Translations under genes and position numbers: made by a program
Shown: in pieces, positions 1-23,039 of the stretch
Layout of the letters: the number at the start of each line of letters is the position of its first letter
How positions within the stretch are numbered: position 1 is the stretch's first letter
Source of the DNA: Cenococcum geophilum
Taxonomy: Eukaryota
DNA length: 64,000 nt
Direction of reading: 5' to 3'
Assembly (NCBI GenBank): GCA_050273025.1
Contig: CP158635.1
Location: 19,468,001-19,532,000 of the forward strand
The notes under the pieces: generated by a model
What the model was told of the DNA's origin: nothing
Database searches by the model: none
Seen by the model: the letters and a program-made list of their open reading frames with translations, nothing else

Positions 1-960
1 GCTAGGAACCTTGCCTTATATCTCCTACTACTAGTTACCGCTGTATAGCTTGTTATAGACTTAGTAGTTGTCGGCATTATAGTCTCTTTAGTGCATATAC
101 TAGTGCATCTTTAAAGGGTTAATAGCCAATTAGAAAGGTAATTATATTTATAACATCCTAGTAAAGAATATAGTATTTCCTCTACTTAGAGCCTTTAATG
201 TTTAATTCCACCTTATACTCTAATCGGAGCTATTATTTGTCTTATATGCTAAATAGAATAGCGGTAATTAGTTCCTCCTATTAATTTGTAGATTGGAAGC
301 TAAGTAGGCTATAAAGTAGGCTAAGGCGGGTGTCTTTAAGCAGTGCGTTAATATCTCCCTTTATATAGTAAATGCGGTGCAGTTATATTAAAAAGGCGTA
401 ATTAAACTCTAAATAAAAAGGATTATATAGTATACTTTGGCTATTGTTATATTATTATATAGTAATATCTAAAATTGTCTGGTTAACTTACTATATATTA
501 TTATCGGTCTTATATAAAATTGGTTTACCCGCCTTTATATTCTTAGTTACTTTAAATATCTTTACTCTAAGTAATAATAATAATAATAGGACGCTTTTTT
601 AATATGGTATACCGCATAGAGGCACTAGGTGGGCATTCTGCTTATATTCTACCGCTACTGGAGTATACTTATTAGTATCCGTGTTTATACCGTCTAGTTA
701 TAATTGCGCGTTATTTAACTAGTTAGAGTGGTAGAATTAATCGCGAATTATAAGTAGTTGGGCCGCAATAAACGTATAAGTGTTATATCTCTCTTCGCGT
801 GTTTTTTTATAGATATATTAGTAGCTAGGCAGCCGCCTTTTGTAGCACTATAGGTGTTAGTAAAGGCTGCCGTAACTCTTAGGGGTATAAGAACACTATA
901 GACAGCTTCGCTGTATTATTGCTAATTATATATTAAATAATATAGTATTATTTCTAGGCG
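1..960 (-). pseudogene. Plavaka transposase, N-terminal part (RIP-mutated, frameshift near 80)
   Basis: Minus strand reads Y*DVINNITFLIGY*PFKDALVYALKRL/YNADNY*VYNKLYSGN***EI*GKVP. De-RIPed this is ...FLIGHxPFKDALVYAPERLYNADNxRVYNELHSGDWWWETQGKVP, the YAPER...GDWWWETQ hallmark of Plavaka transposases. 5' start uncertain. Confidence 0.8.
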
Positions 961-999
961 TAAAGAGTGCGTATTATAGTACTAACGGTTAATTGCCGG

Positions 1000-1993
1000 T
1001 ATTTAATCTAAGTGGCTTAGCTTTATGGCTGCTAAAAGTATACCTCTTATTTTTTTACTAGAACTAGTTATACTAAAGCGTAAGTATAACTAGCTTAATA
1101 CCGAGTTTAAGGACTTAAAAGTCTAAGGCAACTAAACTAGACGCTAAAGCGTAAGTGTGACTAGCTTAATACCGAGCTTAATACTAAGTTTAAGGACTTA
1201 AAAGAGTTTAAAGTAGCTAAACTGTAAACTAAAGACTTAATAGTACCTAAAAAACCTTTATCCGTCTAAATAATAATATATAGTATTCTTAGGCAATAGC
1301 TATAGGACTATAGCTACGGCGAAGATATTATTTACCACTAATATTATAGAGCCTAATAATATTAGCTATCTAGATCTGTGATTCCGTTGTTTCTATATAA
1401 GCTATAGTAAGAAAAAAGGGAGGATTAAGGGTAGTGCTAGTTGAGTTAAGATAACTAAATGAGTTAGTACTTAAAACTATAATATCTGGTCTTAGGTATA
1501 TAGAGTTCTAACTAATATTTAACTTAAGCTGCCGCCCGGAAGTCTTATATTTGTTATTAGGGTAATACTAGAGGGTTAGGCCGGATAACGGGTATCGGCA
1601 ATAATATAAATAATTTGAAGCCCGCGAAGTAACTAAATAGAAAGCCCGTGTCTTGTAGGCTAACTACTTATCTTTAACGGCTTTTAAAAGTTTATTTCTA
1701 GAATTCCTTTTAATACCTCCGGTTTCCTGTTAAATAGATATGTTAGTATAAGCCTATATACTACTAGGGTGCGGAGAGCTAAAATATAGTTAGAGCTCTT
1801 TGAATAATTTAGCAGAAAAGAATGGGTTATTTGGGTTAGTTTGTAGATTGGCTAGCTTAACCTTAATATCCTACCCCAGCTTGTGAAGATTAGGGCCATC
1901 TCTACCTAGTATACTACCGTTAATCTGTATATTGGCATCTCCCTTATTTGTAGCGGCTGAAGAAGCTTTAGGTGTCTAGTCTTTAGAAGGCAT
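1000..1993 (-). pseudogene. Degenerate ORF of unknown function (or 5' exons of the transposase)
   Basis: ATG at 1993 starts MPSKD*TPKASSAATNKGDANIQ..., a coding-like frame with RIP-type stops; ~72-bp tandem duplication at ~1070-1210. Confidence 0.3.
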
Positions 1994-2550
1994 TATAATG
2001 CGGCTTTTAAGAGAGCCTACTCCGCGCTAGGGCACTAGACGCTATATTATAGGTAGAGCTTATAGTAGTTGTATAAGGTGGGATATATTTCTAGGTAGTG
2101 TGTGTTTAGAGAAATTGAGGCCGAGGCAAGCTTAATGTAGCCGTATTTTTGAAGAGAAATTAAGGCTGAGCTAAGCTTAACGTAGTTATATTTTTAAAGA
2201 TAAAGAGGCTATGGTATTGGTTTAGGCGGCTATAGAAGTTTAAAAGATTAAGTGGACAATGGTAGGAAATAGAAGAAAAAGGCGCATAAATAAGAGTATG
2301 GTGTCATAGGGCTAGAGTAATAATAGCTATATTATGGATAGCTTAATATATAATTCGGACTACGGGACCTATATATAAATAAGTCTAGCAAATATCTTTA
2401 ATATAAGGCGTAGTAGCTATAAGTAGGATCTAGGATACTAGTTTTGGGTTGCTTGTATAGTAGACGTAACAGCTTACCTAAAAAAAAGTTGCTTTGTTAG
2501 TGATATAGCTTAAAAATAGGTTATATTTTGGGTGAAAGGGTATTCTAAAG

Positions 2551-2893
2551 CCTTATCTTGCGCTTATAGGATAAAATACCATATTATATTTCACTTTGTT
2601 TTGTATAATCTTAGACTTTTTATAATGTCTTAGATTATTCCCCTACCTCTCTTTACTATGTACTTTACCTTATCTTGCGCTTATGGGATAAAATACCATA
2701 TTATATTTTACTTTTTTTTGTATAATCTTAGACCTTTTATAATGTCTTAAATTATCCCCCTACCTCTCTCTACTATGCATTTTGCTTTACCTTATACTTG
2801 CGGAATAAAATACTATATTATATTTTACTTTTTTGTATAATCTTAGACATTTTTTAATATCTTAGATTATTTTAAACTTGTTTCCCTACCTCT
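2551..2893. repeat. Three tandem copies of a ~105-122-bp unit
   Basis: Unit starting ccttatcttgcgcttatrggataaaataccatattatattt...gtataatcttagac...ccctacctct recurs at 2551, 2668 and ~2790 (third copy more diverged). Confidence 0.9.
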
Positions 2894-3323
2894 TTAGAGC
2901 TGCTTTACTAACTAGTTATAATATAAAGAATAGAATTATCAGCTCTCTTATTGTTATTTACTTAGTTAGTAGCGCAAATCTTATATCTTATCTCGCTATG
3001 TACCTTTTGTTCCGTTTCTTACTCTAAGTCTTATATTTCGTTCTACTGCCTATATTAAAGCTTACATCTTATCCTACTTCTTATATTAAGACTTGTATTC
3101 CGTTTTATTTCTTATATCGCTCTTAAATTGCTCTTATTAGCATTCGCTATTATCTTAAGTTAATACTATTAGTATACCTTCTTATTATAACTGTTAGGAT
3201 TGTCTTATTATATTATTACTAATTATCTAATATATTATCCGCTCCACTGTCTTTGTAAGTTACTCTATACTATTCTGTATTAAGCTTTTACCTACTTATA
3301 AATATATAGGGTCCCTAACTATA

Positions 3324-6300
3324 ATGGCGGCGCCATATCTAGAATCTAGTTAGTACTTAACTACTACAACTAATAAGAACTTATCGTAAATAAGTAGTCT
3401 AAAGCTGCAGTAAGGACTTATAATTAATGAAAAAATATATAGCAAAATCCTCTAATACTGTGCTAGCGAAATTAACAAAGCGTTTAGTGGTAGGTTGCTA
3501 ATGTCTAGACCTATATAAAATGGAGTTAAGCGTATAGTCTTTAACCTTCTTGATACTAAGTATGGGCACGTGTTTAAGAGATCTAATCTACTATTAGAGT
3601 TTAAAGCTTTTACTATTACCGCTAAAAAATCTATATGGTAATACGTAACGACTAATAGACGTAGAGGCGTAGAGGTTACAATAACTAATACTATTTAAAA
3701 GCGTGGCGCCTTATCTTCTAGAGAGCAGTCTATTAACTTATCTAGATTAAGGGCAACCTCTAAGGCTGCCTAGGTGCTCGGTAATCTGTCTATTAAAGCC
3801 CTATAATAGCTAAATACTATACCTATACTATTCTATAAAATGAGCTTTACTATATATAGTTACCTAGACAAAACGCCATTTACTAGGGCCCCCATTCTAT
3901 ACGGATTTGTATTAAAAACTAAGTATAAGCATCTATTGTCCGATTCTTTAGAGAAAATTAATGTATATTACTATGGATATAATAAGCTGCAGGCCACAAT
4001 AAGTAAAAACTTCTTGGCGGATAAATATAGGGATGGCTAGACTATAGTAGATCTAACCACTAGTATACTAATTCTTAACCATATAAACCTAGCATTTATG
4101 GTGCTTTCTATAAAGAAGGTTAGACTTAATATAATTATAATTGGAGTTAAAGATTCTAATCGGATTGTAAAGCGTAAGAGACTTTATAATTTATAAGATT
4201 ATATAATATTATATAGAGTTGTCTAACGTACGTTTATAGGTATAAGATTTAATGAGGGTAATTCTAAGTCTAACTCTAACCCTAATATTGTATAACTGGT
4301 ACTAACTAAGAGAAGAATAGACATACCTGCCTTGGGTTGAAGTAGTTATAAGCAGTTAACCCTAGAGTCTACGCTACCTATACCTAAGCAGTTAAATTTA
4401 AAGCTTATGTTAACTCTAAAGTCTACGCCACCTATACCTACTAATGTATTATTAGCCGTACGGCCGGCTATAATTAAAACTGCTTATAGCTAAACCCGTA
4501 GTAGTAAAGACCAGCCCCTACTAGATAAATTGGAGCTCTTAAAAGGCGTAAATCTAGATAAAGTGTAAATATTTAAGATAATGCTATAGGATAAAATAAA
4601 AGGATAGTATAATAAATGGCTAAAGTCTAATCGCGAAATGTTTATTAATATATTATTTGAGGATATAAATAATAACCCTAACCTAATTTGTATTGGGGAA
4701 ATTAATCTTAACTATATATAGGAGCGCCACCACTTTAACGCCTTAATTAACCCTATTTTAACTAATAAGGAACCGGAAGATAAGCATAAGGATAAAATTG
4801 AGGAGGTTAATTAGGAAGTTAATCACCTAAAGGACGTATAAGAAGTATATATTAACTTAATATTATAGGTAAAGGCGCTATAGTTCCTCTTGTTTCCGTT
4901 AACTGTTTATAATACTCTTTAAGACGCAACCTTCTACTTATACGGCATAAAAAAGGGTAAAGCTATATAGATATATTAGCTGCTTAGTATTACCTATACT
5001 CTTCTTAATTATGTAACCCTAGGTGGGACCTTTCTTGTGGATATAATGGGTTTAGGTAAAATACTTTAAATGCTTTTAATCTAGTATACCAGCGTATTAA
5101 TAACTAAGATTAACCTTAACTGGCTTAATTAGAAAAATTAAAAAGGTAGAGATAAAAGTCTTTACCTTACCCCTAGTATAGATAAACACCCGCAGCCGCC
5201 TAATGCCTAATGCCTGAGTTAAATAGATGGCATGCTATAGTGCTATTGTGTTAAGGGAAGTATCGCTAGAAAATTTCTTAACCGGCTAGTAGGACTAACT
5301 ATATATATTACTAGATATAATCTACTACCCTAAGCAGTTAAAGACGTTAAATTATGGTTTAAGACCTTAGAACTAAATAATTTTATTTCTAGAGGTAAAC
5401 TATAAGTCTATATGCGCCATACGGCTTTTATTAGGTCTAGTATAAAAAAGTATAATTTTACGGATAAAGATAGGGATATTCTTAAACCTATAAAATATAA
5501 AGGAGAAGGTAAAGTGGTCTGATAGAAAATGGACCTAAGATTAGCTTTATATTTTATAATTACAACCTTATAAACTTAGGCAATAACCTAAACCGCTTAG
5601 GAATAGTATAAAACTATTTTTAATCTCTATAGAGACGGTGGTCCTTATTATATTATTAGTGGGATTTTTACTAATGAGTTCTATATAGATAGGTTAGAGA
5701 TAGGTTATCTAATAAAAATCGCCAAATAAGTGTATAATGATTAAGCAGTATTTCCTCGCTTTTAACGCCTGGGCCAGTTTTATAAGGACGGCAATAGTAA
5801 AATAACCTACTATACCTCTTAACCTTTAGTAGTGTTTACTTCTGGTATACTAACTAGCGAAGGTTTTATGAGTCTAATTCCCGCCTTAGAAATTTTTAGG
5901 GCCCCTAATTAGACGGATTCCCTAAATATAAAATTAATTAATAATTGTAATATTAAAGCGTTAATTAAATATAAAAAGCTAGGAGTAGCTAATCGCTCTT
6001 CTTTTCCAAATAAGGTTATTACGGGCTTTAAAAAATACTTCTCTTTAATTATAAAGGTCTTGATTATGCGCAGGATGGGGGAAGACCGATGGTTTAATAG
6101 GAGGGTAATTAATAAGCTACCACTGGTTGTCTACTAAGACTGCTATATAATGAACGATTTAATATTTAAACCGTATATTAAGAAGCTTTGGTATAGAGTA
6201 TCCCTAAAAGCTTTTGAACAGCTAAATAAAGCTTTTAGACACTAGAAAGCTAAAGGAAGAAAAGGAGAAGAACCTATCTTTAATATAGATTAATTTCTGG

Positions 6301-7121
6301 AGGGAGCCGGTTACTTATTAAAAAATTTTGCTATCTTTCTAGGCCTAACTAAGGTAGGAGATAAGTAGTAGGATGTGTAGTAGAAGGATAAAACAAAAGT
6401 TGGAATAAAGCTAAGGTAGATAGTTAACGAGTTCCGTAGCGAAAAATAGGATAAACCTTTGGATAAGAATCTACTTTAGAAGAATTAGAGCACGATTGCT
6501 AACTCTAGGAAACTAAATGGAATTATAAAATATATTAATAAAGTACTTAAAAGGAATCCTAATAAGAGACTACTATTTAGCAGTTACGAACTAGCGGTAT
6601 ATACGCTATTACGCCTTATAAGTTAGCTATTAAACTAGTGGTAAACTGTTACTAATAATATAATATAGTATTTCTATAAAAGGCTCGGCCAGTCTAAATA
6701 TTTAACTATTTGCTAGATAGAGTCTAGGATATCCCTAAAAGACTAGGAGGATATCTGCAAAGCGTTTTGTATTCTAATAGGCGGTTTTTACTAAAATAAT
6801 ATAGTCTAGTTTCTTATTATTAACTGAAGAGTTAAAGAAAAGGGTCTAAATTTAGTCTCTACGCATAGAGTCTATCTACTTAAACTAGTAATAATGGTAG
6901 ATATAGAGGTGCAAGTGTTTGGCTGAGCTGCTAGATCTAGACAGCTAGCGCTAGTAGTTACTGCGTTAATAATGTATAGTACGGATAAGTGGAACCCAAT
7001 TAATATAGTTATATTAGTGAGGCGTATAATAACTAAAAGGATAATAATTAATAAGTTTTATAAAGTGTTTAAAGCCTAACCTACTTAGTAGGCTAATAAT
7101 AATGTAATAAAAATAGCGTAG
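3324..7121 (+). pseudogene. SNF2/SWI2-family helicase-like ATPase (RIP-inactivated)
   Basis: One frame from ATG 3324: GGTFLVDIMGLGKIL at 5022 (motif I), IFTNEFY at ~5665 (DEFH), TSGIL (SGTP), LIMRR. After a probable intron (~6620-6670): KGLNLVSTHRVYLL...EVQVFG*AARSRQ (motifs V/VI). Confidence 0.85.
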
Positions 7122-8286
7122 CTGGTGCAGTTAGAGTAGTAACCCCCTATAATAAGAGTATGTCTTAGTATAATATATATATATATAGACAATATATAAC
7201 TATTTAATATTTTGTAATATATTATCTTAGTATTAACCACCTTATAACTAACTAAACCTTAAAAAGTTTAAATTTTGTCCGGATTAATATTACTCTAGCT
7301 ACTAACTACCTTAATACCTATTAAGTAATCTAGCCTATAACCCTACTAACTCTCGTTCCTAATATACATTAACAATTCCTATTAAGGTGTATCCTCTTTA
7401 CTAACAGACTATATATATATGCCATCTTTATTATTCTAAAAGCCTAATTAGTATATAAGAGGATTATCCTGTAACTAAAGCTCCCTTTATATCTTAAATT
7501 ATTATAAGAAGTAAGACGGCATTAGAATAAATAAACTAATATTTATAACTACCGCTTTTGTCTGCCGATTGTATAGTTGTAGCGTATATACGTAGTTGTC
7601 TGCTATAAGGGGGAACCGTTAGTGGTAGTTTTTGAGATCTTACTATCCTATGTGAAACTTTTACTACTACCTATAACGTCTTAACGACTACCAGCTCCTA
7701 CCTACACGCTATGCGACGTCTATACGAAATCCCTAACGGCGAAGAAAAGCGTACCCTAATTATTCTATTTAATCTGCCTCCTACCTTTTTTTATTAGTAT
7801 AAGATATTGAATTAACCTATAATATAATACTAACTGGAATAATTGGTAAACCTAGCTTCGCTAAACAAATGTGCTTAATTATAAGGACCGAAACCCTGTT
7901 GCTATTAAGCTTGTTATACTATAAAATGAAAGGGCTATTATTAATATTAGTACGTTTTAAAGGCACTTTATTAGCTAGCGCTAATAGATATAAGTTAATA
8001 GACTACCTACTACTTTATATTTAATAGTTTTAAGAACAATAGGGTAAAATATGCTATTATTTATTGTGCTCTTACTAACTATAATATTTAATTCATTATA
8101 GGCCAGAAATTTAACCTTAAAGATAAGTAAAAGGTAGACTTTTGGGATATGTTAGATATATTATAGACGAAACCTTTATATAACCTACCCGCATTAGAAC
8201 ACCTTAATAGCAGTACTATACTATTGGATTTTGCTATTAGGCATTAGTAACTAAGTAACCTTAAATCTTCCCCTTATTGCCCGGCC

Positions 8287-8520
8287 CTAAGCCTTATTAT
8301 ATTGCTAAGACTTATTATATTATTGAGTTTTATTGCATTGCCGCTGAGCCTTATTATGTTGCCGAGTCTTATTATATTGTTAAGTCTTATTATATTGCTA
8401 AGCCTTATTACGTCGCCGAGCCTTATTATATTATTAAGTCTTATTATATTGCTAAGTCTTATTGCATCGCCATCGAGCCTTATTACGTTATTAAGCCCTA
8501 TTATATTGCCGCTGAGCCTC
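8287..8520 (+). repeat. 18/21-bp tandem array (consensus ~gccgagccttattacatt), probably the repetitive end of a degenerate ORF starting ~7700
   Basis: About 12 units, lengths multiples of 3; explains the overlapping spurious ORFs at 8274-8541. Confidence 0.85.
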
Positions 8521-8594
8521 CTAGCTAGATTAAGCAATTAGACGTTGCGTATTTAACTCCTAGGCGTAGCGGGTTCGATTCCCACTTGTCGCGT
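8520..8594 (+). other. tRNA-like/Pol III promoter-like cassette (degenerate)
   Basis: T-arm/B-box gcgGGTTCGATTCCcac at ~8568-8585 and A-box-like tagctagattaag ~50 bp upstream; no convincing acceptor stem. Confidence 0.4.
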
Positions 8595-9433
8595 ATTAAA
8601 AATATTAAAAATATTAAAAAAGAAGGTCGTTTCTTATTAAATTAGGCGTTAGTAAGGCTTTAAATTAAGCTTATATTTTTATACGTGTCCCGCAACGCCT
8701 AAAGTTATATATTTAACGAAATCTTAGCACTATATATTAAGCATATCGGCTCTTCCATGTTAAGTTTTAATTACGTTAGGCTAGCTCTAAATCATAGCAA
8801 GAGGTAGAATGTACTATACTACTACGCTATAAGGACTTTGGAATGTGATCTTATAAATTTAACTAAATTATAACCCCTTTTTAAACCTTATGATTAAACC
8901 AGATCCTTAGGGAGAGATCCCTATATTAAATCTTAAGGAACGTTTGGTTACGACTTTAGATTAAATTTAAAGGCCGCAGAATATATCTAAGCTGAAGCTT
9001 AAATCTAATTCTAACGCAATCGTTTGGTTAATTTAGCAACTTTCTAATCTAAAAGCTCCTTTAGATTGGCAAGCGCGTTAAATTCGTAAGCTATACCGTA
9101 TATAGAATCTAAATTTATAAATATAGGGTATCTCTATTACTGTAGTGGCTACTATAGTAACGGGGGCGCTATATTTTAGTGAGTAGTTAATTTACTATGT
9201 CTCTGCTACTGCAGTAGCGAGGCACCTTAAGTTTAATACCACGCTAAGTATTATAACTTTCCTGTAGTAACTAAGCAACCCTAAACTAAAGCAATTATAG
9301 AACTTACTATGCCACTACGCCGTAAAGGCCCTTAGTTATAGTCTTATGAATTTAATTAAAATATAAACACCTTCCTAAATCTAACAATTAAATATTTCTA
9401 TATATAATACTATGCCAAGGATCACGATATAGA

Positions 9434-9544
9434 TTGCTTAGACATAGCTTTACTATAATGCAACGGCTCTATACTAATTAATTAATCTATAAGAGATTTG
9501 GGCAGTAAAATTACTGCTAAGAGTTACTATCTAGATCCTGGCCG
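9434..9544 (+). repeat. Dispersed duplicate of 47096-47151 + 47229-47283 (3' flank and last codons of the SnoaL-like gene)
   Basis: Near-identical blocks tagctttactataatgcaacggctctatactaattaattaatcta and aagagattyggg...gagttactrtcyrgatcctggccg; differences are transitions. Confidence 0.95.
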
Positions 9545-9595
9545 ACAAATACCTATAACTATAATCTTAGTAAATGGCAAAAAGTATATAGTAGT

Positions 9596-9995
9596 ACTAA
9601 GACAATAGCAGGACAATATAAGACAATAATAGGACAATATAATATAATGGCAGGACAATAACAGGACAATATAATATAATAGTAGGACAATAATAGGACA
9701 ATATAACACAATAGCAGGACAATGGCAGGACAATGTTAGGATAATATAACACAATAGTAGGGCAATAATAGGATAATATAACATAATAGCAGAACAATGT
9801 AATATAATGGCAGGACAATATGACATAATGGTAGGACAATATAACATAATGGTAGGACAATATAACATAATGGTAGGACAATATAATATAATGGCAGGAT
9901 AATGTAATATAATAGCAGGACAATATAGGACAATATAGGACAATATAATATAATGGCAGGACAATGGTAGGACAATATAAGATAATATAAAAAAA
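9596..9995. repeat. Minisatellite built on core AGGACAAT (10/11/21-bp units)
   Basis: Repeated caggacaatataacataatgg and caggacaatgg variants; source of the spurious Cys/Tyr/Ile-rich ORFs. Confidence 0.92.
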
Positions 9996-10139
9996 TAAAA
10001 TATAAGATATAAAAAGAGGGAGCCCTAACGCTTCCTCTTCTTTCTACTCCTACGGCCCTGGCGCCTAATATAGTGTAATATCGTCTATCCGTATAAGCGA
10101 TAGTATTAAGATGGTTAGAAGTATTAGGAAATTTTATAA

Positions 10140-11290
10140 AGTATATATTACTTTAAGTAATATACCTAAATAACTAGTTTAGCGCATGGTTTGTATAACA
10201 TGTGATAATAACAGGGGGATCTCCTATTGTTATATTGCTAAGTAACACCTTTAAAGCCACGTTTTTCTAGTGCCTGGAGGTCTTTAGATTATTATAAGAC
10301 GCTTTATAAGAACTCATTTTAGTATAGTAGCTTAAGATTTGTTAAGCCCTATAGTAGTTATATTTAACCAGTCTTTAAGAATATGAATATTCTTAAATAA
10401 GGAAGCATCCTTAATAGCTATAATTAAACTAAGATCCGTATAAGGCTTATTTATAACGTATTATAGTGCTTTAATATTCTGTTAAACTTAAATAAGGTAT
10501 TCTAATAACGGGAATCTATTAGTGGTTAGATATCTTCTTATTTAGAAAATATTATATACTTACGGCTCTTTTATTAGCTTTTGTAATGCTAATATAGTGT
10601 AGTAACTAACTTTATAAAATCTAGTTTATTCCTTAACCATCGTCTATAATACGGATAAGTTAATCTTAATATCTTTAGGTCTTAAAGAATAAGTTAACCT
10701 TTAAGGGATTCTGTTCTAATACGGCTAATGGTCTCGCCGCCACTATTACAAGTATATATTTTGTTTAAAAATTATTAGTCTTAGGAGTTAAAGCAACTAG
10801 AGACCTGGTGACTAGTCTTTTTAACTAATCCTAATGGATTATCTTCCCTACTCTCCTAAGTAAGAACGCCACGCAGATTACTAGCCCTTAAGGTAAAAAT
10901 ATTATTGAGCTAATATGGACCTTATAGATATTAGGGGATAACTGCTTTAGAATTATAGCATGCTTACCTATTTATATATACCGACTCTATTACTATATCT
11001 AGATTCTAGTAAACTAAAAAGGGTCTACTCTAATTTGACCTACTACCTCTTTTAACGGTTTAATCGTGTCTTCTTTTAAAAGATTGTATTAAGAGCTTAG
11101 ATACTTCTTCGTTAAGCCATATAGACCTAAGATCTTGTTGACTTGTAGTAGAATATCTCCGTTTTCGCTAATGATATTCTGGCCCTTATTAGGGATATTA
11201 AGTATTTTAGTGGAGGTCGGGACCTCTAATTGTGCTAACTAGGCTCTACTAGTTATAGGCTAACTGGGCGTCTTAAAGTATTGGTAAATA
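10140..11290 (-). pseudogene. Truncated, intron-containing fragment of an Hrr1/SAD-3-like (Upf1/ZNFX1-type SF1) RNAi helicase
   Basis: Minus strand: A*LAQLEVPTSTKIL...YLSS*YNLLKEDTIKPLKEVV...SLVALTP...IVAARPLAVLEQNP...LALQKLIKEP...GLNKS*ATILK*VLIKRLIII*RPPGTRKT/ALKVLLSNITIGDPPVIITCYTNHALN*LFRYI. GT-AG introns at 10921-10967 and 10516-10563. Similarity stops right after motif Ia. Confidence 0.85.
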
Positions 11291-11676
11291 TAGTTATTAG
11301 TACATATTAAGCTGCCTAGAAAGGATTTATATATATAGAACTATAGCACTATAGCCTAGAGGCTGTATGCGTATTATTGTATATAGTATAATATAATAAA
11401 TATATAAAAAATATATAAAAAAAAAGTATTGACGAATCCGGGTGTTAAATTAAGCTTATAGACGGAGACGTAAAAGGGATAGGAGGTTATAAGTCTAGGT
11501 GGTATAGCGGGTGAAGAAGCGTTCGCTAATACGCTTATTTATTTCTTATAAGACATTTAACTAATTATTTTATATAATAACCAAACAATATACCTGTCTA
11601 TATAATTCTATACATTAGTCTTAGCGCGTAATTAAGACGTCTTTCCTGCCGCACCTCCCCTAACGCTTCTAGAATT

Positions 11677-13380
11677 ATGGCACTAATAATAGACCTAAGC
11701 TATAACACTAAAGACACTCTTAAGCGAGATCTAGGGCTTATGAACGAACAATATAATACGATCTACTATAATGTTGAAATCAAAATGTCGACGCGCGGGC
11801 TCCTTAGATAGCTACTACGCTCCCTTATAAGCAAGATATAAATACGGCAAATATTAAACGAAATCTCCAACGAATTCCCATCTATGTTTTTAGGTTTACC
11901 TAAGAACCTACGTACTAAATATGTTAAACAGCTTGCCTAGCGCTATAGCTATAACGCGACGTGTTAAATAAATAAAACGGCTCCTACTAGGCAAATTATA
12001 ATAGGCAACTTAGTACTCCCATACTCCGCCATTGCGTATTATCCACTAGCCGGCATACTAAAGGCAATAAGGCAGGAGGGAATACTAAGGTTATATAGAA
12101 CAATAATAATACTAATTTAGCGGGTAGCTGACGAAGAGCTAATAATTATCCTAACCTAAAAGCTAGCGACTAGCAAGAATAACGCTCTAGATATATACGT
12201 TAATAATCTAAGCTTTAATATATTTATAGATATACTAGGCTAGGATATTAACTTTAACCCTAAAAGTAAAACGCTTTACTACTACGTTGGCGATAAGATA
12301 GCTAGAGGACGAATTTAGCTTATAAATAAAGAGAAATAGCGCAGTGCGGTTAAGGATATATTTCTATAAGAAATAGATAGGTTTTTATTTATAATAAAAT
12401 AAAGAAGAATAAGTAGGTTACTACTTAAAGTTAAGCTAGCATTACTAACTTATATTTATAGTCTGCGCTACTAGCTAAAAATAATATAATTACTTACCCT
12501 CTATTTCCGCACCCTTGCCTTTACTAAATAACTTACACTCTATATATATAAGAATAGGTAGAACTAGTAAATGGGTTAATACTAAGGCGATACTTAACCT
12601 ATAGCTGTCCTAAAAAACCTCTCCTAGTTAAAAAAGAGCCCTTACTCTATGCCTTAACCCGCAATAAAAAAGGCAAAGGCAACTATAACCGTAGTATAGA
12701 TTATGCGCCTTAAAGCCACTGCTTTATCTGGAATGCTTATTAGTTTAATGGATTACTATATATAAAGGTAGACGGCTTAATAGAGCCCCTTAGTATACTA
12801 TTAGGCGAGGGAGTTTTAGAATAATATAATCTAAAATATTCTTATAACTTATCCGGCATTCTTAAAACGCCTAAAGGGATTAGACGATAAAGTTTAAGGT
12901 TTATACCCGTTCTTTTTAGTAAACTTGTTAGGGTAATATATGTTAATACCGTCCCCGGCTCGCTCTTAGTATCTAATACCTAATCCTTATATCTATGCTT
13001 GCGCTTTTCTTACTATTCTGCTGAATTTAATTGCTATTATAATATATATGTAGGGGATAGGTTAGGCTTACTATAGGCTAGCGGGGTTAATAACGCGGAA
13101 AAATAACATTAGATATTTATAGTAGAAATACTAGGTGTTGCATAAGGGTATAAAATATAGCGATATAACTATATAGAAGTGTGATTGCTGTCCTATATAC
13201 CGCCTATGCCTACCCTAGCATTATCTACACTGGCGAGCTATATGGATAAGGTAGATAAGCTTCGCTTTAAGCGCGAAACGGGTATTAAACCTAGTATAGG
13301 TAGACTGGAATAAGGTATAGGATCTAAAAGCCAGCGCCCTAGGTGGGTAAAGTGGTTTAATAAGGTACCTCCCTGTTAAA
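11677..13380 (+). pseudogene. RIP-inactivated gene(s) of unknown function inside the Plavaka element
   Basis: Coding-like frame from ATG 11677 (MALIIDLSYNTKDTLKRDLGLMNEQY...) with only TAA/TAG RIP-type stops, and a probable intron near 12410-12460. Confidence 0.5.
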
Positions 13381-13947
13381 TTTAGACATGAGCCTTATTA
13401 GCCTACTGCTTTTGTTATTAGGATTAACGTTTAACCTTTTATATACGTATACCGTATCTGCTAAGGGATATGCTAATAAAATAAAATAGTTTCGCGTATA
13501 ATAGCAAATAGTATTAGACAATCTTTAACTATATAACAATGTTTTCTTAACTACTAACTTAACGCGAGTTAATAGGTTGCGATCGCGGCTTAACCGCAAC
13601 CGGTTAGAACTAGCAGCTAATTATAATAAATACACCCCTATTTAAGTTATTTGTAAGCACCATAGTAATAATACTCCTACTAATACTGCCATTAGTTTAA
13701 TATATATTATACTAGTATACATTCTTTTAAGTTGTTAATCTATATACGCCCTAGACATTATAAAAACAGCCATAAGGTAACCTATTCTAGCTATAAGCTA
13801 TACCTTCTGCTAACTAGGCAAATATAGGAGTGTTACTATAGTAGGTAAACGTAAAAACGCGTTATTAAACACTTAAACTAGTAGCAAGAACCCTACTTTG
13901 AGTTAATATAGGATAAGAAAATGAGGATAACTAGTATAATTAACCTT

Positions 13948-16560
13948 ATGTCTCTACCTAGCCTACTACTAAGAGTTGCCTATGTTCTAGCTAACGGAAG
14001 AAAGAACGCGCTAATAGAGAACGAGTATGTGGAACTTAGCTAGGACGAGTATATGGAACCCAGCTAGAACAAGCACGTAGAACCCAGCTAGAATGAGTAA
14101 TATTATAACTTTAGTCTAGTTATATCTAGGCGCAGAGAGGAGTAGGTATATAATAGACCCCGTTAACATCGAATATAATATATTAAGCTGGCTAACAATA
14201 TATAGAATATATATGGCCGCCTCCGGCTTAAAAGGGTAATATCTAATAATAAGAATAGCGACTCTAGTCTAGTTATATCTGGGTATAGAGAGGAGTAGGC
14301 ATATAATAGACCCTATTAACGTTATATATAATATATTAAGCTAGCTAACAATATATAGAATGTATATGGCCGCCTCTGGCTAAAAAGGGTAATCTCTAAT
14401 AATAAGGATAGTGACTATAAGTCTATACCTGCTTCTTCTATAAAATAATAGCGACTAAATATTAATAAATCTACTAAATTTATTAATAATCTAGTAGCAG
14501 AACTAGCTTAGTTAAAGACGCGAAGTCCTAATCTTTTGGTTAAGGTAGGTTACACCTTTATATATAACTGGAGTCTAACTACAATATTTAATAGTCTCCT
14601 CTACTATTTAGCACTTGGTGAGCCCTAGTAAATAAAACACTCTCTTTACTATCTAACCGCCCACCGCTATAAAAAGCAGCATCTTTATAATATACCTCCT
14701 GCTCTTAATAATTGCGTATTAGTTTAAAATACTCTTCTATACGCCCAATCCGTACCTTACCGCGTAAATAATTGTATGCTAGTTTAAAATACTCTCCTGT
14801 ATGCCTAATCTAAACCTTATCGCGTAAATAACTAATATTTGGCTTTATATTCTTCTTAGTAAGCCGTGTTCGCCTAAACCCTAATATAGCTTCGTCTATA
14901 AAATAAGTAACCTCCCTCTAATATAGAGTATACTAATCTAGTGTTTAATCTAAAGGGGACCTAGATAGCACTAGGGAAAGTAAGGACGAGTCGGACTATA
15001 ACGATTTTGACCTAACTGCCGCGATATAGGCAAGAGAAGAGTACCTTTGGATATTATAACGGCGATATATAAAAGAAAACCCACCTAAGAGATATAAGCC
15101 CATATTTGCGCTTTATAGGTCCATTTTACTAGTAAGGCTAATAACTAACTCTAGGACTTATGACGGGCATCTTATTAACCCGTGGTTTAACCGCTTTCTA
15201 GGCCTTATTAAGGATATAATAAAAAAGGTATAGTTAGAAGCTATTTTAAAGTAGCTAAAAGCAGTATAAAAAAAAGCTAATTATATTCCTGACCCGGTGT
15301 CCGCTTATAAGGTATCTATATACTAGAAATATTGTATTAAATTGTCTACTAATAATCTTAATATTATATATAGCTATTTAATGTAATAGGGAACTTTAGG
15401 AACCACGTAATTATAAAGGCTTATATAGTTATAAGGGAGGTATATAGGCTAGGGTTTAATAATATGCCCGAACTAATTATGGAACTACTAACTAATTATA
15501 ATTTTATTACGCTAGATTATATAAAGGTATTTTGCCTATGCTATTTAGTAAAATGCTAATAAGAGTTAATAGCTAAGTAATAACCGCTTCCGTTCTAACG
15601 CGATAGTTGCTAGCATAGCTAGTATATTTTACGGTAGAGGAAGAAACGGCCTTGCCTAATTACCCTGCTCTTATAATATGTTTAAAAAGCTTACTAGTAA
15701 TACTATTGCTTTTATTTTAATAGTAATATATTATGCAATTAGGGAGTATAGAACTAGGTCTAAGGGAATAGATAACTTTTATGGTACTGTTATTAGCAGT
15801 TAGTATATATCCGGTGTTTTACTACCTATTATTATTCTCTAACCCGTTATAGAAGCCTATGCTAACCTCTTAGGCAGCTAGAACTAGATGTTTAGAAAAC
15901 GGCAATCTAAAATCTAGCTACGGCTTTAGCCCGTAGTTATTAAATATACTATAGGCCTAATGCCGGATTAATTAACTATAGAAATTATTAAGGACCCGTA
16001 TAAAGATGACCTTAACGACCTTATAGCGGATTTAAGCGATAATATAAGAGAGAGGTTCCTTATAAGCCTTAGCAATAACAAAACTAACGCGATTATTAAC
16101 TTAGGCTATTTATTAGTAAGCCGGGCTATACTATCTAATCTACTAAGTCTGTCTTAAAGGGAGAGCTCTAGAGTAGGCTAGACTAGTTTACTAAGTCTGT
16201 CCTAAATAGAGAGCTCTAGAGTAGGCTAAACTAGTCCGTTAAGTCCGTCTTAAAGGGAGAGCCCTAGAGTAAGCTAGAAAATCTAGGGCCCTACTACTAC
16301 TATAATATTTGCTAATTTAACTTTTAGAACTAGCTAAGTTCGTTAGATTTAGCAGAATATATATCCTCTGCCCTAGTATACCACTTTATCCTAAATATAG
16401 GAACCAGTAAGCCTAGGCCGGAAAGGTTTAAATCTAATAAGTTATTTATATAATTTAAGTAGTACTATAGCCTTATAGAGGACAGCTATGGCTAGTATAG
16501 TAATAGAAAAGTAATATTAACTTTAATTAAGAATAAGGAGCAGTATATAAAGTTTGTAAT
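13948..16560 (+). pseudogene. DUF6532-like domain protein with repeat-rich termini (RIP-inactivated)
   Basis: 15580-15920: RFRSNAIVASIASIFYGRGRNGLA...TIAFILIVIYYAIREYRTR...NFYG...AYANLL resembles the DUF6532 pattern (IAL..TAI..AL.EW.TG...F...Y...L). In-frame 153-, 60- and 42-bp tandem repeats and several GT-AG introns. Confidence 0.5.
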
Positions 16561-16989
16561 ATATACTCTGGACTCTAGTATAGAGAAGCCAATAGAGTTT
16601 TTGGTAGGAGATTAGGTATAGGACTTTCCATACTCTTCTATAGGATAACTGCGGCTTCTTTATTATATATACTAGCTCTTAATCTACCTTTCTTTTAGCC
16701 TATATCTGCTACTCTTAGTAGCTACTTTTTGGCTATATATATATGCTATACTAGCAAAGCTAAATACTTATAGTATATTATTGTCGCAGGGAGAGCAGGA
16801 AAGGTCTTATGCTTTTAAAATATATTATAAAACAGTTGGGATATTATATTAAATTATCTAAAACAATATAATAGATTGTATAAAGAAGTGTATATAATTT
16901 GCCTTGCTAGCCTTATAAATAGCTTTAAAGTAGCCTTTGTTTATTATCTAAAATATACTGTTAGTATAAAAGAGGTGGATGGCTCCAAA

Positions 16990-17156
16990 TACAATTGTGG
17001 TTGTAGGTTGCGTGCAGGTTGCGCGTAGGTTGCGCGCAGGCTGCGCGCAGGCTGCGTGTCAAAAAAACACGACATAGGCTAGTCGGTCGAGTTGCTAAAT
17101 GCCCTCAACTGCGCGCCAATTGCGTCAACCACCAACCATTGAGGCCATTGGTAGGG
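16990..17156 (-). repeat. Terminal/subterminal region of the Plavaka element
   Basis: Five 11-bp repeats gYaggYtgcgY at 17003-17057, inverted related motifs (caactgcgcg, caaccac), end ...ccattggtaggg = CCCTA on minus. Confidence 0.7.
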
Positions 17157-17620
17157 TACCATATTTTGCCGATATAGAGGTAAAAAGGAAGAGCTAAATT
17201 AAGAAGCTTTTAAGTAGGAAGCCTCTCTATAAGCTTTTAGTAAATATAATAAAGAGATCGCGCGATAGTAAGAAGTTTTAAAAACCTTAAAGGTTGCTAA
17301 GAATAATATATGGTTATAGACTCTGTTAAATACTACTATGTAAAGACGGCCCGTATTGGCAGAAGTACGTAAATTGGCTTAATACTAAAGAATAAGTATC
17401 TATATATAATATACACCAATATTTTAATATATTTATAGCTTTAGTTAAGACCTTTGGTAATATAGTAGAATAATTAACCGCCTAGGAATGTAGCTTATTA
17501 ATTAATATATACGGGCCATAATTTATAAAACGTAAGTAATAATGTAAGGGATAGGATATACTTAGGTCTATTCTATTATAGGAGGGAAGGTCTCTCTCCA
17601 GACAAGAAGTCACGGTGCCG
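17157..17620 (+). mobile_element. 3' remnant of a piggyBac-like transposon (apparent target of the Plavaka insertion)
   Basis: Frame RKPLYKLLVN...R..RIIYGYRLC*ILLCKDGPYWQKY de-RIPs to RTxYGCxLCxIPLCKDGPCWxEH, the piggyBac C-terminal Cys-rich motif; ends ...cacggtgccg followed by TTAA (17621-17624). Confidence 0.55.
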
Positions 17621-18099
17621 TTAATCTGTCGGTCGGTCGTAGTTAGTTAGTAGAAATTAGTAGGGAAGTAGTTAGTAAGAAGAGAAGAAAAGAGTATATT
17701 ATCTCTTAAAACTGTCAGCCTGTTAAGCCTATTTAAGTTATTAGAAACCCTAGGGCTACGGACCAATCTATATATCTATAGAAGGCCTATATACTCCCTA
17801 GACTATACCTAATCTAAATATTAAATCTAGTAGGCTAATTTACCCTACTATATACCTCCCCTACCTAAGTTATTGTCCCCTAACGACTCCTAAAACTTTA
17901 AAACTCCCTATCTTTAAAATAAAGGTATAGTAGGTAACTATATATACTCCTTGCCCTTACTATAAACCCAAGATAGTAAACAAGGAGACTCTGTTTTAGT
18001 TAAATAAGACCGCTCGCGTCTACCTAGTAGAGTAGTATAAGAGGTATTAGACTAACGGCTCTTAGATAATATAGCTCTTTTATATTCTTCTATTTACTT

Positions 18100-19270
18100 G
18101 GTTTTATCCTATAGTTCTTTAGGTAACTCTATATAACTTTATCCTTCTATAATAATAGGGAGTACTCTACTTAGATCTACTATAATAGTTAAAGGATTAA
18201 TTCTATTGTTAACGCAGTAGAAATACGAGCGGCTATTAAAGCGCTTTATTTTGGCTATATATATAAGCTAAAACGCATTCTTATAGTTTTCGACAGCCCT
18301 AAGACGGTAAAAATATATCTACTTACTAACTTCGTTCCTATTGCCATTAAGAAAAAGGTTATAATTTTAAATTATCGTTAAAGAGTCCTATTATCGTCTA
18401 CCTAAAAGGGCGTTAGATAAGGCGCTGGTAGCTATAAGCTTAACTACAGTAGGGAAGCGGTATAAGATTGCGCTGTAAAGATTAGTATATCCGGATAGTA
18501 TATGGGGTAGTGCTTTTAAGTATTAATAAGTATCTACCAGCTCTACCTAAGTCCCTCCATTTATAACCTTAAGGTTATTATAATCGTCCTAAATACTAAT
18601 AAACTATAGCAGTATTATTTGCTAAGTCCTAGTTAAAGGTCCTTTCGCTCTATAAGGAAGGTAAGGTATAGTTATATATATATCTCCTTTCTTATATAGC
18701 TAAGCTACCTAATTAGTTGCATGTTTTTCTACGTCTTAGTTAGATATCTTATAAATAAATCCATTACCCTTAGTTAATCCTCGCGCCTTAAGATCCTTCT
18801 ACTATAACTCTAGGTGGTAATATATACTAGGTAGAATAATTATATAATTATCCTTAGTTTTATTATCTAGAGAAATGCTTCCTTAGATTATATTAGCACT
18901 GCATCCGCTCTCTAAAAGAGAGGAAATATTAACATTAATATAGTAGAAAGCTGTAGAGTCTCCCTTAATAGCGAATTTTATATAATAAGGGTAGAAGATA
19001 AGTTGTTACTAGCTGTTAGGCCTAAGAGCGTAATAGAGACGGTAATACTAAGGATTCTGCCTTATTAGCTACTAGTAGAGACTATAAACTATCGTTCTTA
19101 ACTAGCTGTAATTTAGCCGCCTATTAATTAGACGCTAATAATAGCGGTATATACGTATTTCCTTATTAATTATTACTAAGATGCTAAAATCCTACTACTA
19201 TTTAAACACGTTTAAAACCATAGATCCTTTTACTCCTATATATCTTGGTTATTTAGTAGCAGCATCTAAT
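18100..19270 (-). pseudogene. PhyH-like 2OG-Fe(II) dioxygenase-fold protein (RIP-inactivated)
   Basis: Single frame de-RIPs to YGWLRTMVYSLxQQLMRQDP...RLISYPYY...FRHIDVNI...MIQGSISLDDE...ILPGMHHHL...KKGDVxITIPHLPHGA, giving the HxD, QGxxxL, PGxH and GD...H pattern. The His/Asp ligands are inferred from RIP-reverted codons. Confidence 0.65.
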
Positions 19271-20224
19271 TAAGCAAAGTCTCTTAGTTATGTCCAAGGG
19301 GGTCTTCTCCTTGAAGCTCTACACGAAGCCCTGCACGAAGATCTACAGCTTTGTTTACGACCAGCTTCCACCCCCCTCTGGCAAAAATTTATTTCGCTAC
19401 AGCTCAATCGCCACCAACTGTATATAGTAATTGTAGCAAACGCCTATGGCTGTACGCAAGGGCTATTTTGGTTGTCTGGGAGAACGGGCACGACTCCTCC
19501 CTTTCAACGACTTGTTGAAGTTTCTTTCCTCCCCCTTTTTGCCTACGCCTACGCCTACGCCTACGTTATAGACTTACAACAGCTAATAAAACGCGATCCT
19601 TCGCCTTCCATCGTCTTCAATATCCTTTATAGCGTGCATAGCTACATTACCTTTGTTAGTTGTCCATTGAACGTAGAGGCCACGTTAAAAGTGGGTCAAC
19701 CAAGGCGTCTTCAAGGCCAACATTATCCAATCCAGCTTCCTCGTTCTTATTTTTCTCAATTCCACTTGCTTCGCTATTTCGAATGTCACTTGGCGTATGC
19801 AGAAAGCCTGTTCAACACGCCTATGCAGTCATGGCTTGGTTCCCGTCTCTAATACCTAGTTCACGGTTCACAAAAGATTGGTTGGGGTTTTGTTTATGGT
19901 TTTAGGTGATCTGTCAAAAGAGCGTTATCCCTACAGCACGAACTCTCCCCCATCCTGGCGTATTTTGCAACCCCATCGAACCATCCATCGAGCCACTCTT
20001 TCTCCACCCCCCTCTTCCTCCACCATGGCACGCCGAAGCCGCCACGCTTCCACGGATCGCCTAGGTAATAACCATGCTAGAACTCATTAACACCACGATT
20101 TCGAAGTTTCTCTGCATTTAATGCCACGGGCCAAAACTTACAAGCTTCCAATAGCGCAGCCGGAAATTGGAAGGTAACAGTTGGTGTCCTGCTGCTTGAC
20201 GCAGGCATGGCAGTAAGTCTTCCC

Positions 20225-20845
20225 ATTAAGCCCGAATTGATTTGAATTGATTACAAAGCAATTCAAATCGATACAATTCACAAAGCGGCGTTGGGCGACA
20301 ATTCTAGTGCAGAGGGGTGGGGCGGCTTGAATTGATTGAATAAAATATAGGTGAGGTTTTTGGTTAAAAAATACCTCTAAGGTGCTAACGAAGGATCTGG
20401 TAAGTGAGCGCTCGGTTACTTTTCTTAGGTCCCGTACTAGTATTCGGCAACTTCCGCTCATCCTGCAGGTCCTCTGCAGGCACCTTAGAGGAATATTTAA
20501 GCCGCCAAGCCCGCCAAAGTTATGGAGTTTACACCTGCCAAAGGTCCTTTCAAAATTTATCATTTATCTACCTATCAACATTACTATCTATTTCCATCTA
20601 TATGGACGCAGAAACTACTTTATTTACACCTTCTACAGGCCCTAGTGAATTATAGTTACCTACAGAGCTTCAGAAGACTCATAACTTTGACAGTCGCGCC
20701 ACTAATGCAGACCTAGCGGGGGACTCAACAAATTTAGAAGCGGACACGTACAAAGGCCTTGACTGGAAGCTATTTCCTGGCTTCCAAATTCCTCCACTAT
20801 CTAAACGAGACCGACGATCGCATATTTGGCAACACTGCTATAAGT
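20225..20845 (+). mobile_element. 5' remnant of an hAT-like element
   Basis: gaattga/caattca subterminal motifs at 20230-20340; ORF remnant from 20601 MDAETTLF...YKGLDWKLFPGFQIPP...RRSHIWQH, like the N-terminus preceding the BED finger of fungal hAT transposases. Confidence 0.5.
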
Positions 20846-21100
20846 AGAGGACTAATAGATGGCAGACGACGACAACCCGATCCTCCACCAAAGCCCTTAA
20901 CACTATATTGATGATGTCATACATCACGGGTTTCATCTTGTGGCCAGCTGCGCTACAAAGAGGAGCTTATGCAAAGGCTCTGCGGGCAAGATTTAGGCGA
21001 ATTAAGTGACTTTTGGTTGCTACACCGTGCCAAGACTTTTAGTAGGGACTATCTTAATAATTCAAGCCTTTCAAATCTTCCGGAACTAGCCCAAGTCAAT

Positions 21101-21742
21101 TCAATTCGGTGATTTTGGAGCGCCAAGCAATTCATTCAAGTCTGAGGTTGTTGGAAGACTTGAAAGGCTTACTGCCATGCCTGGCTTGACGGAGGCGCCG
21201 CCTTGGCAGTTAATATTGCAGAAGGTTTGGACGCCACCTGCGTATGTTAGGCAAGGAGTGGATGGGTGAGGGAGAGGTGCTGGGAAACTCACGAGCCTGG
21301 GAGCTGGAGAAGAAAACGTCGATCTCTACGCGGTTCCAGTTGACACCGACGGGGGCGCTGTAGCAAACGCCATATGTTCCTTCGCCACTAATACGCAGGG
21401 TTAGAGTTCCATGTTTGCCAGACAGTCAAAGCGGTCGTGAAAAAGGGAGAAGCTTACGCTGCGGTGCCGTTCTCGGGCCATGTATCGTCGGGACTGGAGT
21501 TGTGGTCGCAGCCACCATTATCATCTAGATCTGCATTAGAAGATGTCTGGTAGTAGGGAAGAAGGGCCTGAGGCAGGCTCACAGAAACGCCAGTGGAAAT
21601 CACTTCGTCGCATAAGAGGGGAGGTGTCGGCCCTCCTGTCAAGAGGTTGGGCAACCTTATTAAGCTCTGAATTAACCGGGGAGGCGGAGATAGATAGGAT
21701 AGTGAGTGCCATTACGGCAATGGAGCGAAGATTGAACAACAT
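21101..21742 (-). CDS. Small secreted Cys-containing effector-like protein, ~154 aa, 4 exons (21742-21583, 21530-21458, 21387-21293, 21237-21101)
   Basis: Signal peptide MLFNLRSIAVMALTILSISASP, dibasic LDRR/LMRR sites, three GT-AG introns with CTAAY branch sites whose phases join into one frame, 4 Cys. The 3' end could instead use a further donor (GTAAGC at ~21172). Confidence 0.8.
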
Positions 21743-23039
21743 GATTGATCGGCTGGTTGAAAGATTGATCTTGCAGAAGTTAAGAGTAATTCTGAAGGTG
21801 ATTCTAATGAAGATGGTGCTGTTCTCGACTTATATAGGCATTAGAGTCTTGCGTATGGAATTTGACGGAGCACGAAATCCTTCTGGCTCTTACTTCTCGT
21901 ATCACGGCACTGTCTCGGTACGACATAGTTCTCGTATTCAACATGTGCAGTCAAGTATTCTCACGATAGGGTGCCGTTTGTCACCGACCTGCTCGTGTCT
22001 GTATTATAGGCGTGCCGTAGGAGCAGAAACCTTACAATTCCCCCCTCTTTTAATGCTTTCGTTCTAGGATGATGCTAGGGAAGTGTAAATTCTATTCTGT
22101 AGGATTGTCACGGAGTAATTTGAGGGTAATTTGGAAGTGTTTGTCAGCTCATAGAATTCGCCCCTTAACGGAGAGCTGCTGGAACCCTGTGTAAGGTTAG
22201 ATTTTTTTTTCCTTTACTCTCATAGATGAAAATACTAAAGGATCGTTTTGAAGGCGAGTTGAATTGCAATAATGATCCTGTTCCTGAGAGCATGACCGCA
22301 TTGGCGGACCGCGGAAATTCCCCGACTCAATCGACGTCTAGGATTGTGCAGGCTAAGAGATCCTATGGCGCCGTGCCCCTGGATTGTGGCCCAATGCTAA
22401 CTTAACCAAACACAGCCCAACTCAGCCCTGAAGTAAGCCCCCGAAAAGGCCAAGACGCATACACTTTTGGTAAACGGAGATGAGCGGCTCATATTTATAA
22501 AGCTGGGCCCATAAGCTCCGGTGGAGGATTCGCTGGTGATAAGGAGCAGTATGCCCAACGGTCCACCGGTAAGGCTGCGATTCTCATCACGTGATGCATG
22601 TACGTATGACCCGAGTTTAGATTGCGGTATTTTGCCCATTTAGTTCAGTTTAAACGGCTGATTTCGACCCTCTGCCGACAATCGTTGTTGGATAGATAGC
22701 AGTTGGATAGGCTAGAGAGGATAAGGGCGCAGGACCCGGTAGAACAATGCCACAATCGAAGTCAGAATTTTGATGAGGAGAAAGAAAAAAGACGCGGAAG
22801 GATAATCAACGCCCAAGTGCCTGTAAGACGGACCCCACGAGGCAAATTGGATCAAGCTTAATTGAGCCCTATTTAACCAAGGGATACTTGTCGAACCAGC
22901 CTATGTAATATATTTAACTGCTATATACTGCTGTACAAGTAGAAACCATGGCGCTAGTATATCCTATAACGTAAAAATCTTCTTATCCGTGCAATAACTC
23001 GCGTCTTTACGTCGTATATAATCTCTTAGAATCTATAGG

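Follow-up and report, generated by a model that had tools for sequence, protein, structure and literature searches.

A helicase relic in AT-rich repeat DNA

We analysed a stretch of 64,000 nt from Cenococcum geophilum (GenBank assembly GCA_050273025.1, contig CP158635.1, positions 19,468,001 to 19,532,000), called the window throughout, most of which has a G+C content of 30–34%, with islands of normal G+C at ~19–23 kb and 43–51 kb. Our subject is the relic of a helicase gene on the minus strand, extending to position 11546 (Table 1), which lies in AT-rich repeat DNA and carries the marks of repeat-induced point mutation (RIP). An initial annotation, made from the sequence alone, had read it as a fragment of an Hrr1-type silencing helicase within a Plavaka transposon and had suggested that it might act as a decoy against host silencing, while allowing that it might equally be a neutral capture.

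Read in six frames, the sequence shows its traces of a helicase on the minus strand. Our Pfam scan took all six frames with stops masked as X over positions 1–63000, with thresholds of E ≤ 1 for 6001–15000, E ≤ 0.1 for 1–6000 and 15001–18000, and E ≤ 0.01 elsewhere; it found the ZNFX1 domain (PF25396) at ~10678–10923 minus with E = 1.3e–10 (41.7 bits against a cutoff of 27). Stop-masked frames of 400 codons held 33–43 stops, and one such frame (P0002, 33 stops), scored against 1.84 billion representative proteins, matched 147 of them at E ≤ 1e–3, 62 at E ≤ 1e–10 and none at E ≤ 1e–30. The matches were mostly helicases of ~1100–1300 aa; the best of them, P0003, and its 40-member cluster are short open reading frames (ORFs) from metagenomes. 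The helicase relic is real, far beyond chance.

Compared by blastn with L001, one of two intact gene loci described below, the relic falls into a main piece (10153–11283, matching L001 10193–11337 with 80.4% identity over 1146 nt) and a 5′ piece (11423–11546, matching L001 10069–10201 with 78.2% over 133 nt), the two overlapping by 9 nt on L001. Together they cover residues 106–495 of the 1273 in the parent protein P0285 (31%), beginning with exon 2 and ending midway through exon 4, and not the N-terminal half that had been annotated; the first 105 codons, the start codon and the promoter are missing. The 5′ end lies at most 2 nt from the start of parent exon 2 (MNEHISERF), and the 3′ end is mid-exon, after the ..RHVAQ codon, with homology stopping at 10153. 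That the fragment is a genomic copy was correctly seen: two introns are retained, both with their GT..AG ends preserved. Its truncation just past motif Ia likewise held up, and the C-terminal two thirds of the helicase was absent from the 64 kb when seven full-length relatives were compared with it by tblastn; other matches were short (E ≥ 0.76). Within the same 64 kb, self-blastn found neither a second copy of the fragment nor long terminal repeats (LTRs) surrounding it.

The Walker A and motif Ia signatures survive as relics only. The annotated QGPPGTGKT and TNHALDQ, both present in the intact parent P0285, are not literally in the DNA, which reads (stop)RPPGTRKT at 10260–10286 minus and CYTNHALN(stop) at 10174–10200 minus, mutated forms of the two motifs. 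Along the homologous reading path we counted ~22 in-frame stops, and the indels relative to the parent (+1, –2 and –13 nt) all break the frame; at 10153–11373 no stop-to-stop ORF of at least 50 aa exists on either strand. Stops, frameshifts and the lack of a start together speak against the dominant-negative peptide that had been proposed.

The relic is split by a 139-bp insert with an A-rich tail on the plus strand, flanked by an exact 9-bp target duplication, AAAGTATTG, at 11275–11283 and 11423–11431. Its depth in three DNA runs is ~10 times that of its flanks, which points to a very high-copy, short retroposon-like element (a short interspersed element, or the 5′-truncated end of a long interspersed element, LINE).

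Table 1. Features of the window, in order of position
Feature	Coordinates	Strand	Evidence and remarks
Many-copy AT-rich RIP-type repeat DNA	8000..13000	.	Read placement, depth across 30 bins, Pfam
Parent exon 4, first ~121 codons	10153..10515	-	Walker A relic, then 13-nt deletion, then motif Ia relic
Retained intron 2, 48 nt (GTAAGT...AATAG)	10516..10563	-	Projected from L001 intron 10914-10961
Parent exon 3 relic with ZNFX1 domain	10564..10920	-	PF25396; 2-nt deletion near 10684
Retained intron 1, 47 nt (GTAAGC...ATAAG)	10921..10967	-	Projected from L001 intron 10508-10554
Remainder of parent exon 2 (..QYFETPSQP...GIYEQ)	10968..11283	-	blastn; 1-nt insertion at 11020, in-frame stops
Retroposon-like insertion, 139 bp	11284..11422	+	Overlapping blastn ends, target duplication, ~10x depth
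Relic 5′ piece, start of parent exon 2 (..MNEHISERF)	11423..11546	-	blastn to L001; RIP-mutated, small deletions
DUF6532 relic	15537..15806	+	PF20149, E 4-5e-6, 27 bits against cutoff 24

The intact parent gene

A scan of metagenome contigs with P0160 gave four loci, among them L001, L002 and L004. L001 and L002 are full-length, intact genes of normal G+C content that match P0005 over residues 51–1126 and 51–1175, and they encode a ZNFX1 domain N-terminal to an Upf1-like SF1 (superfamily 1) core of AAA_11 and AAA_12 (parent scores: ZNFX1 E = 5.8e–33 in the L001 exon, AAA_12 2.6e–38, AAA_11 9.3e–26; the ZNFX1 domain of P0005 scores 2.3e–32). The same 90% cluster contains the 1273-aa P0285, named Cenococcum geophilum, and the next relative with a name is from Glonium stellatum, at 89%.

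When the parent was compared with solved structures (phmmer against the Protein Data Bank), the nearest was ZNFX1 (9q9z, E = 4.9e–85), against 5.3e–33 for Upf1, and Sen1, Aquarius and IGHMBP2 were weaker matches than ZNFX1. By its sequence, then, we assign the parent at family level to the ZNFX1/Hrr1/SAD-3 helicases of superfamily 1 (SF1), and not to Upf1; with ZNFX1 so well ahead of Upf1, derivation from another SF1 helicase, an outcome on which the initial reading would have fallen, is excluded at that level. The annotated Hrr1 type thus stands as a family assignment. Below family level, Hrr1 is indicated by automatic labels only. Silencing roles have been described for SAD-3 and Hrr1, and Neurospora crassa has three related helicases, Sad-3, NCU09357 and NCU05861, in the account given by PMC5384783.

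RIP of the fragment and not of its parent

Identity between the parent and the window copy is ~80%, and most of the differences are of one kind. In the main piece 209 of the 1130 sites aligned with L001 mismatch, and 187 of these 209 are of RIP type (96 G>A and 91 C>T); the other 22 (1.9%) match the background between L001 and L002 (74/3600). C>T change depended on context: CpA sites were changed in 108 of 161 cases (67%) and CpG in 56 of 108 (52%), against 10 of 121 CpC (8%) and 13 of 146 CpT (9%). The RIP indices agree, at 1.58 for TpA/ApT and 0.47 for (CpA+TpG)/(ApC+GpT). By both mutation spectrum and indices, the fragment is RIP-mutated.

The initial annotation had suggested that the fragment might direct RIP at the host gene. 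The indices gave no sign of RIP in the captured interval of the host helicase locus, where they are 0.61/1.25 against 0.68/1.23 for the remainder of the gene.

The carrier repeat and its other copies

The fragment belongs to DNA present in many copies. Placement of reads and contigs from DNA runs X1, X5 and X10 (three studies) on window positions 8000–13000 at ≥90% identity yielded 6390, 11094 and 4445 contigs, respectively, each of ~110–160 nt, and variants among them were nearly all transitions. Depth was roughly even over 30 bins of this interval in all three runs and did not fall over the fragment. Summed word depth in X1 ranged from ~12,000 to 22,000 over the fragment and from ~7,000 to 17,000 over the flanks, and the single unitigs listed had depths of 77–139; as depth is not copy number, we conclude from these figures only that diverged copies number in the tens to hundreds. 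Altogether 20 DNA runs from nine studies contain part of 9400–12400.

Other copies are seen individually. P0113 (60 aa, in three contigs) crosses the identical 3′ junction (..LDQLFRHVVQ/SNIYFINF..) with fewer RIP changes; a search with it found no match beyond P0113 itself. One codon has changed from A to V in P0113 and from A to T in the window, which shows that RIP acted on different copies independently. The ZNFX1 domain also occurs in two partly RIPed ORFs, P0062 and P0284, and a RIPed sub-fragment of the helicase gene, 158 bp long, lies in another AT-rich locus, L004. At L004 (9996–10154 and 10172–10465) this sub-fragment adjoins a tRNA-T-arm-like sequence of the GGTTCGATTCC type. Similar tRNA-T-arm-like sequence occurs in the window at 8545–8900 (near 8560), ~1.5 kb from the fragment and in the opposite relative orientation; ARAGORN called no transfer RNA, and Rfam gave no RNA family at E ≤ 0.1, in 8000–12000. 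Tandem sub-repeat arrays flanking the fragment lie in the AT-rich block at 2551–2870, 8274–8509, 9598–10009 and 14108–14425, and reads show skips of 52–260 nt in these arrays, as length variants among copies or isolates.

What the repeat is can be said less exactly. Across 6001–15000 the Pfam scan gave no transposon domain, its only matches being the relic's own ZNFX1 domain and, below cutoff, BTB and LbR_Ice_bind; the fragment is repeat-borne, and its carrier is unclassified. Such a setting fits the published picture of C. geophilum, with a 178.5-Mb genome, 78% transposable elements (TEs) of which 94% are RIP-affected, ~18% of TEs unclassified, and large RIP-affected regions averaging ~20 kb, so far as PMC12910237 reports them.

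Of the annotated Plavaka location, then, the part that is supported is carriage by a repeat, on the evidence of the many copies and of the 3′ junction shared with P0113; the Plavaka identity is not, the scan of 1–63000 having given no match to PF18759. A giant Plavaka/CACTA-type DNA transposon could still have carried the fragment as cargo if its transposase lies outside the window or has mutated beyond recognition, and a few observations lean that way: the AT-rich block holds several tandem sub-repeats, and the DUF6532 relic lies 4 kb away, DUF6532 being listed in a comparative paper among domains that occur together in some fungi, along with KDZ, Plavaka and CxC2 (PMC8955403, in the part concerned with these domains). 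We nonetheless hold this improbable. Equally RIPed relics of RVT_1, RT_RNaseH and DDE_1 in the window were detected at E values of 1e–9 to 1e–15, so a Plavaka transposase decayed to a similar degree would be expected to show up. Plavaka termini are described as 5′-TGT..ACA-3′ or 5′-CATCA..TGATG-3′ with 2–3-bp target duplications (PMC12730594, in its account of the termini); our inverted-repeat search of 1–20000 met no inverted termini and only AT-rich, chance-like pairs, with the repeat ends not located and with the proviso that RIP would blur short termini. The main text of the genome paper (PMC12910237) also contains no occurrence of ‘Plavaka’ or ‘CACTA’, nor of ‘helicase’, ‘RNAi’ or ‘MSUD’ (meiotic silencing by unpaired DNA).

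The same data bear on whether the stretch was ever mobile. It might be a segmental-duplication relic, or a host locus split by nested insertions, that merely sits in generally repetitive DNA; no element termini are defined, and within the 64-kb window the fragment is unique. We give this little credence, in view of the thousands of distinct short contigs that three runs place over the fragment and on either side of it, the recurrence of the same 3′ junction in P0113 (three contigs), the presence of an intact gene (L001) and a RIPed sub-fragment (L004) among the loci from one search, and the lack of synteny between the window and what surrounds the intact gene at L001 and L002. For this lack of flank synteny we reject the idea that the window locus is itself the broken host gene.

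Origin of the fragment

We consider with good confidence that the relic is an inert, RIP-destroyed fragment of a host helicase gene in an unclassified many-copy repeat, produced by neutral capture of the Pack-TE kind, amplification and RIP; the neutral alternative allowed by the initial annotation is thus the one that fits best. In this account a piece of the host ZNFX1/Hrr1-family gene, running from the start of exon 2 to mid exon 4 with its introns, would have joined an AT-rich, apparently non-coding repeat and been amplified with it to roughly tens to hundreds of copies, which RIP would then have mutated, independently in different copies; the small retroposon would have inserted into the window copy later. 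Direct observation covers the homology and where it ends, the spectrum of mutations, the presence of many copies and an intact host gene; the order of capture, amplification and RIP, and neutral rather than selected capture, are what we infer from them. The window copy itself has no remaining coding, promoter or small-RNA-targeting capacity.

Several points weigh against this account. Carrier termini, terminal inverted repeats (TIRs), LTRs and target duplications were not found by self-blastn or by the inverted-repeat search of 1–20000, and with no element ends found the mobility of the carrier is deduced from copy number alone. Copy number itself is given only roughly, for summed word depth does not equal it. 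A total of 1133 X1 contigs match at ≥99%, which may mean some amplification after RIP, or RIP saturating the same sites in all copies, so that the order of events may differ from the one given. The coincidence of the 5′ end with an exon start (within 2 nt) is not predicted by pure chance capture of DNA. Finally, neutrality is a default assumption.

The exon-start position of the 5′ end may be coincidence or may hint at an RNA-level step in the capture. RNA-mediated capture finds no support, given the two retained introns and the lack of a poly(A) tract or target duplication of the unit.

Capture of a gene fragment followed by RIP is already known; taken at face value, the present case is what a fungal genome rich in repeats and active in RIP ordinarily yields. 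Its use lies in the intact parent, which supplies an exact unmutated reference, so that the fragment family can serve for studying the RIP spectrum, its timing and the independent histories of copies and isolates.

Counter-defence as an alternative to neutral capture

The fragment also offers a concrete case for asking whether fungal repeats capture silencing-pathway sequence as counter-defence. As a decoy, past or present, it would cause the host helicase gene to be hit by repeat-directed small RNAs or through homology sensing of the RIP or MSUD type, and would thereby weaken silencing. The parent does belong to the ZNFX1/Hrr1/SAD-3 helicase family, the fragment is part of a many-copy repeat whose depth does not fall over it, and 78% of the host genome is TEs (as given in PMC12910237). 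There are precedents for the separate elements of the idea, each as far as the cited text goes: TART-A has taken up nxf2 sequence and gives rise to antisense piRNAs (Piwi-interacting RNAs; PMC7785250), unpaired MSUD genes silence MSUD (PMC6468904), and TET/JBP genes have been captured by fungal DNA transposons (PMC12730594).

Against this, the window copy (the results here concern this copy only) shares 6 of 1125 21-mers with the parent and has one exact run of at least 21 nt, of 26 nt, which does not fit the small interfering RNAs that the initial annotation had imagined directed at the host gene; stops, frameshifts and the missing start and promoter count in the same direction. L001, L002 and P0285 all represent an intact host gene, and its captured interval, besides showing no RIP, is not fast-evolving. 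Comparison with the Glonium ortholog (identity 83.6% for the captured part, 89.8% for the core, 61% for the tail) and of L001 with L002 (1.9% different in the captured part, 3.0% downstream) gave no accelerated evolution there. The parent may correspond to a paralog and not to SAD-3 or Hrr1 themselves, and MSUD is not known from Dothideomycetes, which we also count against a decoy.

RNA data add little. The runs listed as containing part of 9400–12400 include no RNA run. In raw reads from one run (X21, ~12% of the run) there were 40 reads, all placed only partially on 8000–13000, 36 of them at 90–95% likeness, and six of the 40 had loose ends like the unmutated gene. We take these reads as coming from elsewhere and not from expression of the window copy; the evidence is weak either way.

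A decoy effect of the window copy is not supported, and the evidence argues against a present-day role; over past and present together we judge such a decoy unlikely. There is a slim chance that while the copies were near-identical to the gene, the repeat drew small-RNA or other homology-dependent silencing onto the host helicase by way of the 1.27-kb piece. If that were true, it would be a fungal counter-defence like that of TART-A and nxf2, it may have helped the bursts that inflated the genome to 78% TEs, and the RIP-killed copies of today would be fossils of that episode. Neutral capture followed by amplification and RIP remains our preferred account.

Other features of the window

The DUF6532 relic is the sole protein-domain trace besides the helicase relic in the 19-kb AT-rich block of RIPed DNA, and its stop-masked frame gave no word-based protein match at E ≤ 1e–3. 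A 56-bp stretch at 9434–9489 in this block recurs with 96% identity at 47096–47151, in DNA of normal G+C just downstream of a SnoaL-like gene; with a related tail at 9482–9520 and 47229–47260, it looks like a short repeat resembling a miniature inverted-repeat transposable element.

Nested RIPed retroelements occupy 24520–29835, 34–36.5 kb, 39.0–39.5 kb, 51270–55816 and 59165–62263, with a DDE_1 (pogo/Fot-type) transposase relic among these intervals. They include a Ty3-type element (RVT_1, RT_RNaseH, SH3_Tf2-1) that is split by a LINE; three copies of this LINE occur, at 90–92% identity, and another LINE has an endonuclease domain. The GC-normal island carries three apparently intact genes: a DUF6604 gene at 43.7–44.6 kb on the plus strand (E = 7e–49) and, on the minus strand, the SnoaL-like gene at ~47.3–47.8 kb and a fungal-specific transcription factor (Fungal_trans_2) at ~48.8–49.2 kb.

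Comparison with known systems

Pack-MULEs, Helitrons and CACTA elements are known to capture pieces of host genes into transposons. Our case resembles these Pack-type captures in that a host gene piece with introns lies in a non-coding multi-copy element, was apparently amplified together with it and has no intact ORF. It differs in that the carrier, for which neither TIRs nor target duplications nor a transposase came to light, is unclassified, that its copies are RIP-destroyed and that the 5′ end falls on an exon boundary. Of the usual marks of such capture, many copies that include the flanks are present here, whereas defined ends with a target duplication were not found.

Drosophila TART-A and the present repeat are alike in carrying a portion of a gene whose family is silencing-related. 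TART-A makes antisense piRNAs, the corresponding host region evolves rapidly and host expression is reduced, according to the sections of PMC7785250 that treat them; here, by contrast, identity is 80%, there are almost no shared 21-mers, and the captured interval of the host gene shows neither RIP nor fast evolution. The TET/JBP elements, which include Plavaka, are likewise fungal mobile elements with a host epigenetic or silencing-related gene, but as PMC12730594 describes them they hold whole coding genes beside a transposase, whereas ours is a truncated non-coding fragment with no Plavaka transposase. To the ‘silencing the silencer’ effect of Neurospora MSUD (PMC6468904 and PMC5384783, in their accounts of it) the likeness is that the parent lies in the SAD-3/Hrr1 helicase family; unlike there, divergence has by now made the fragment a poor trigger, and the parent is assigned at family level only. 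The genome paper for C. geophilum (PMC12910237), whose main text has no mention of ‘helicase’ or ‘RNAi’, describes features that we see here too: AT-rich blocks of ~20 kb, transition-rich repeats and CpA-biased mutation.

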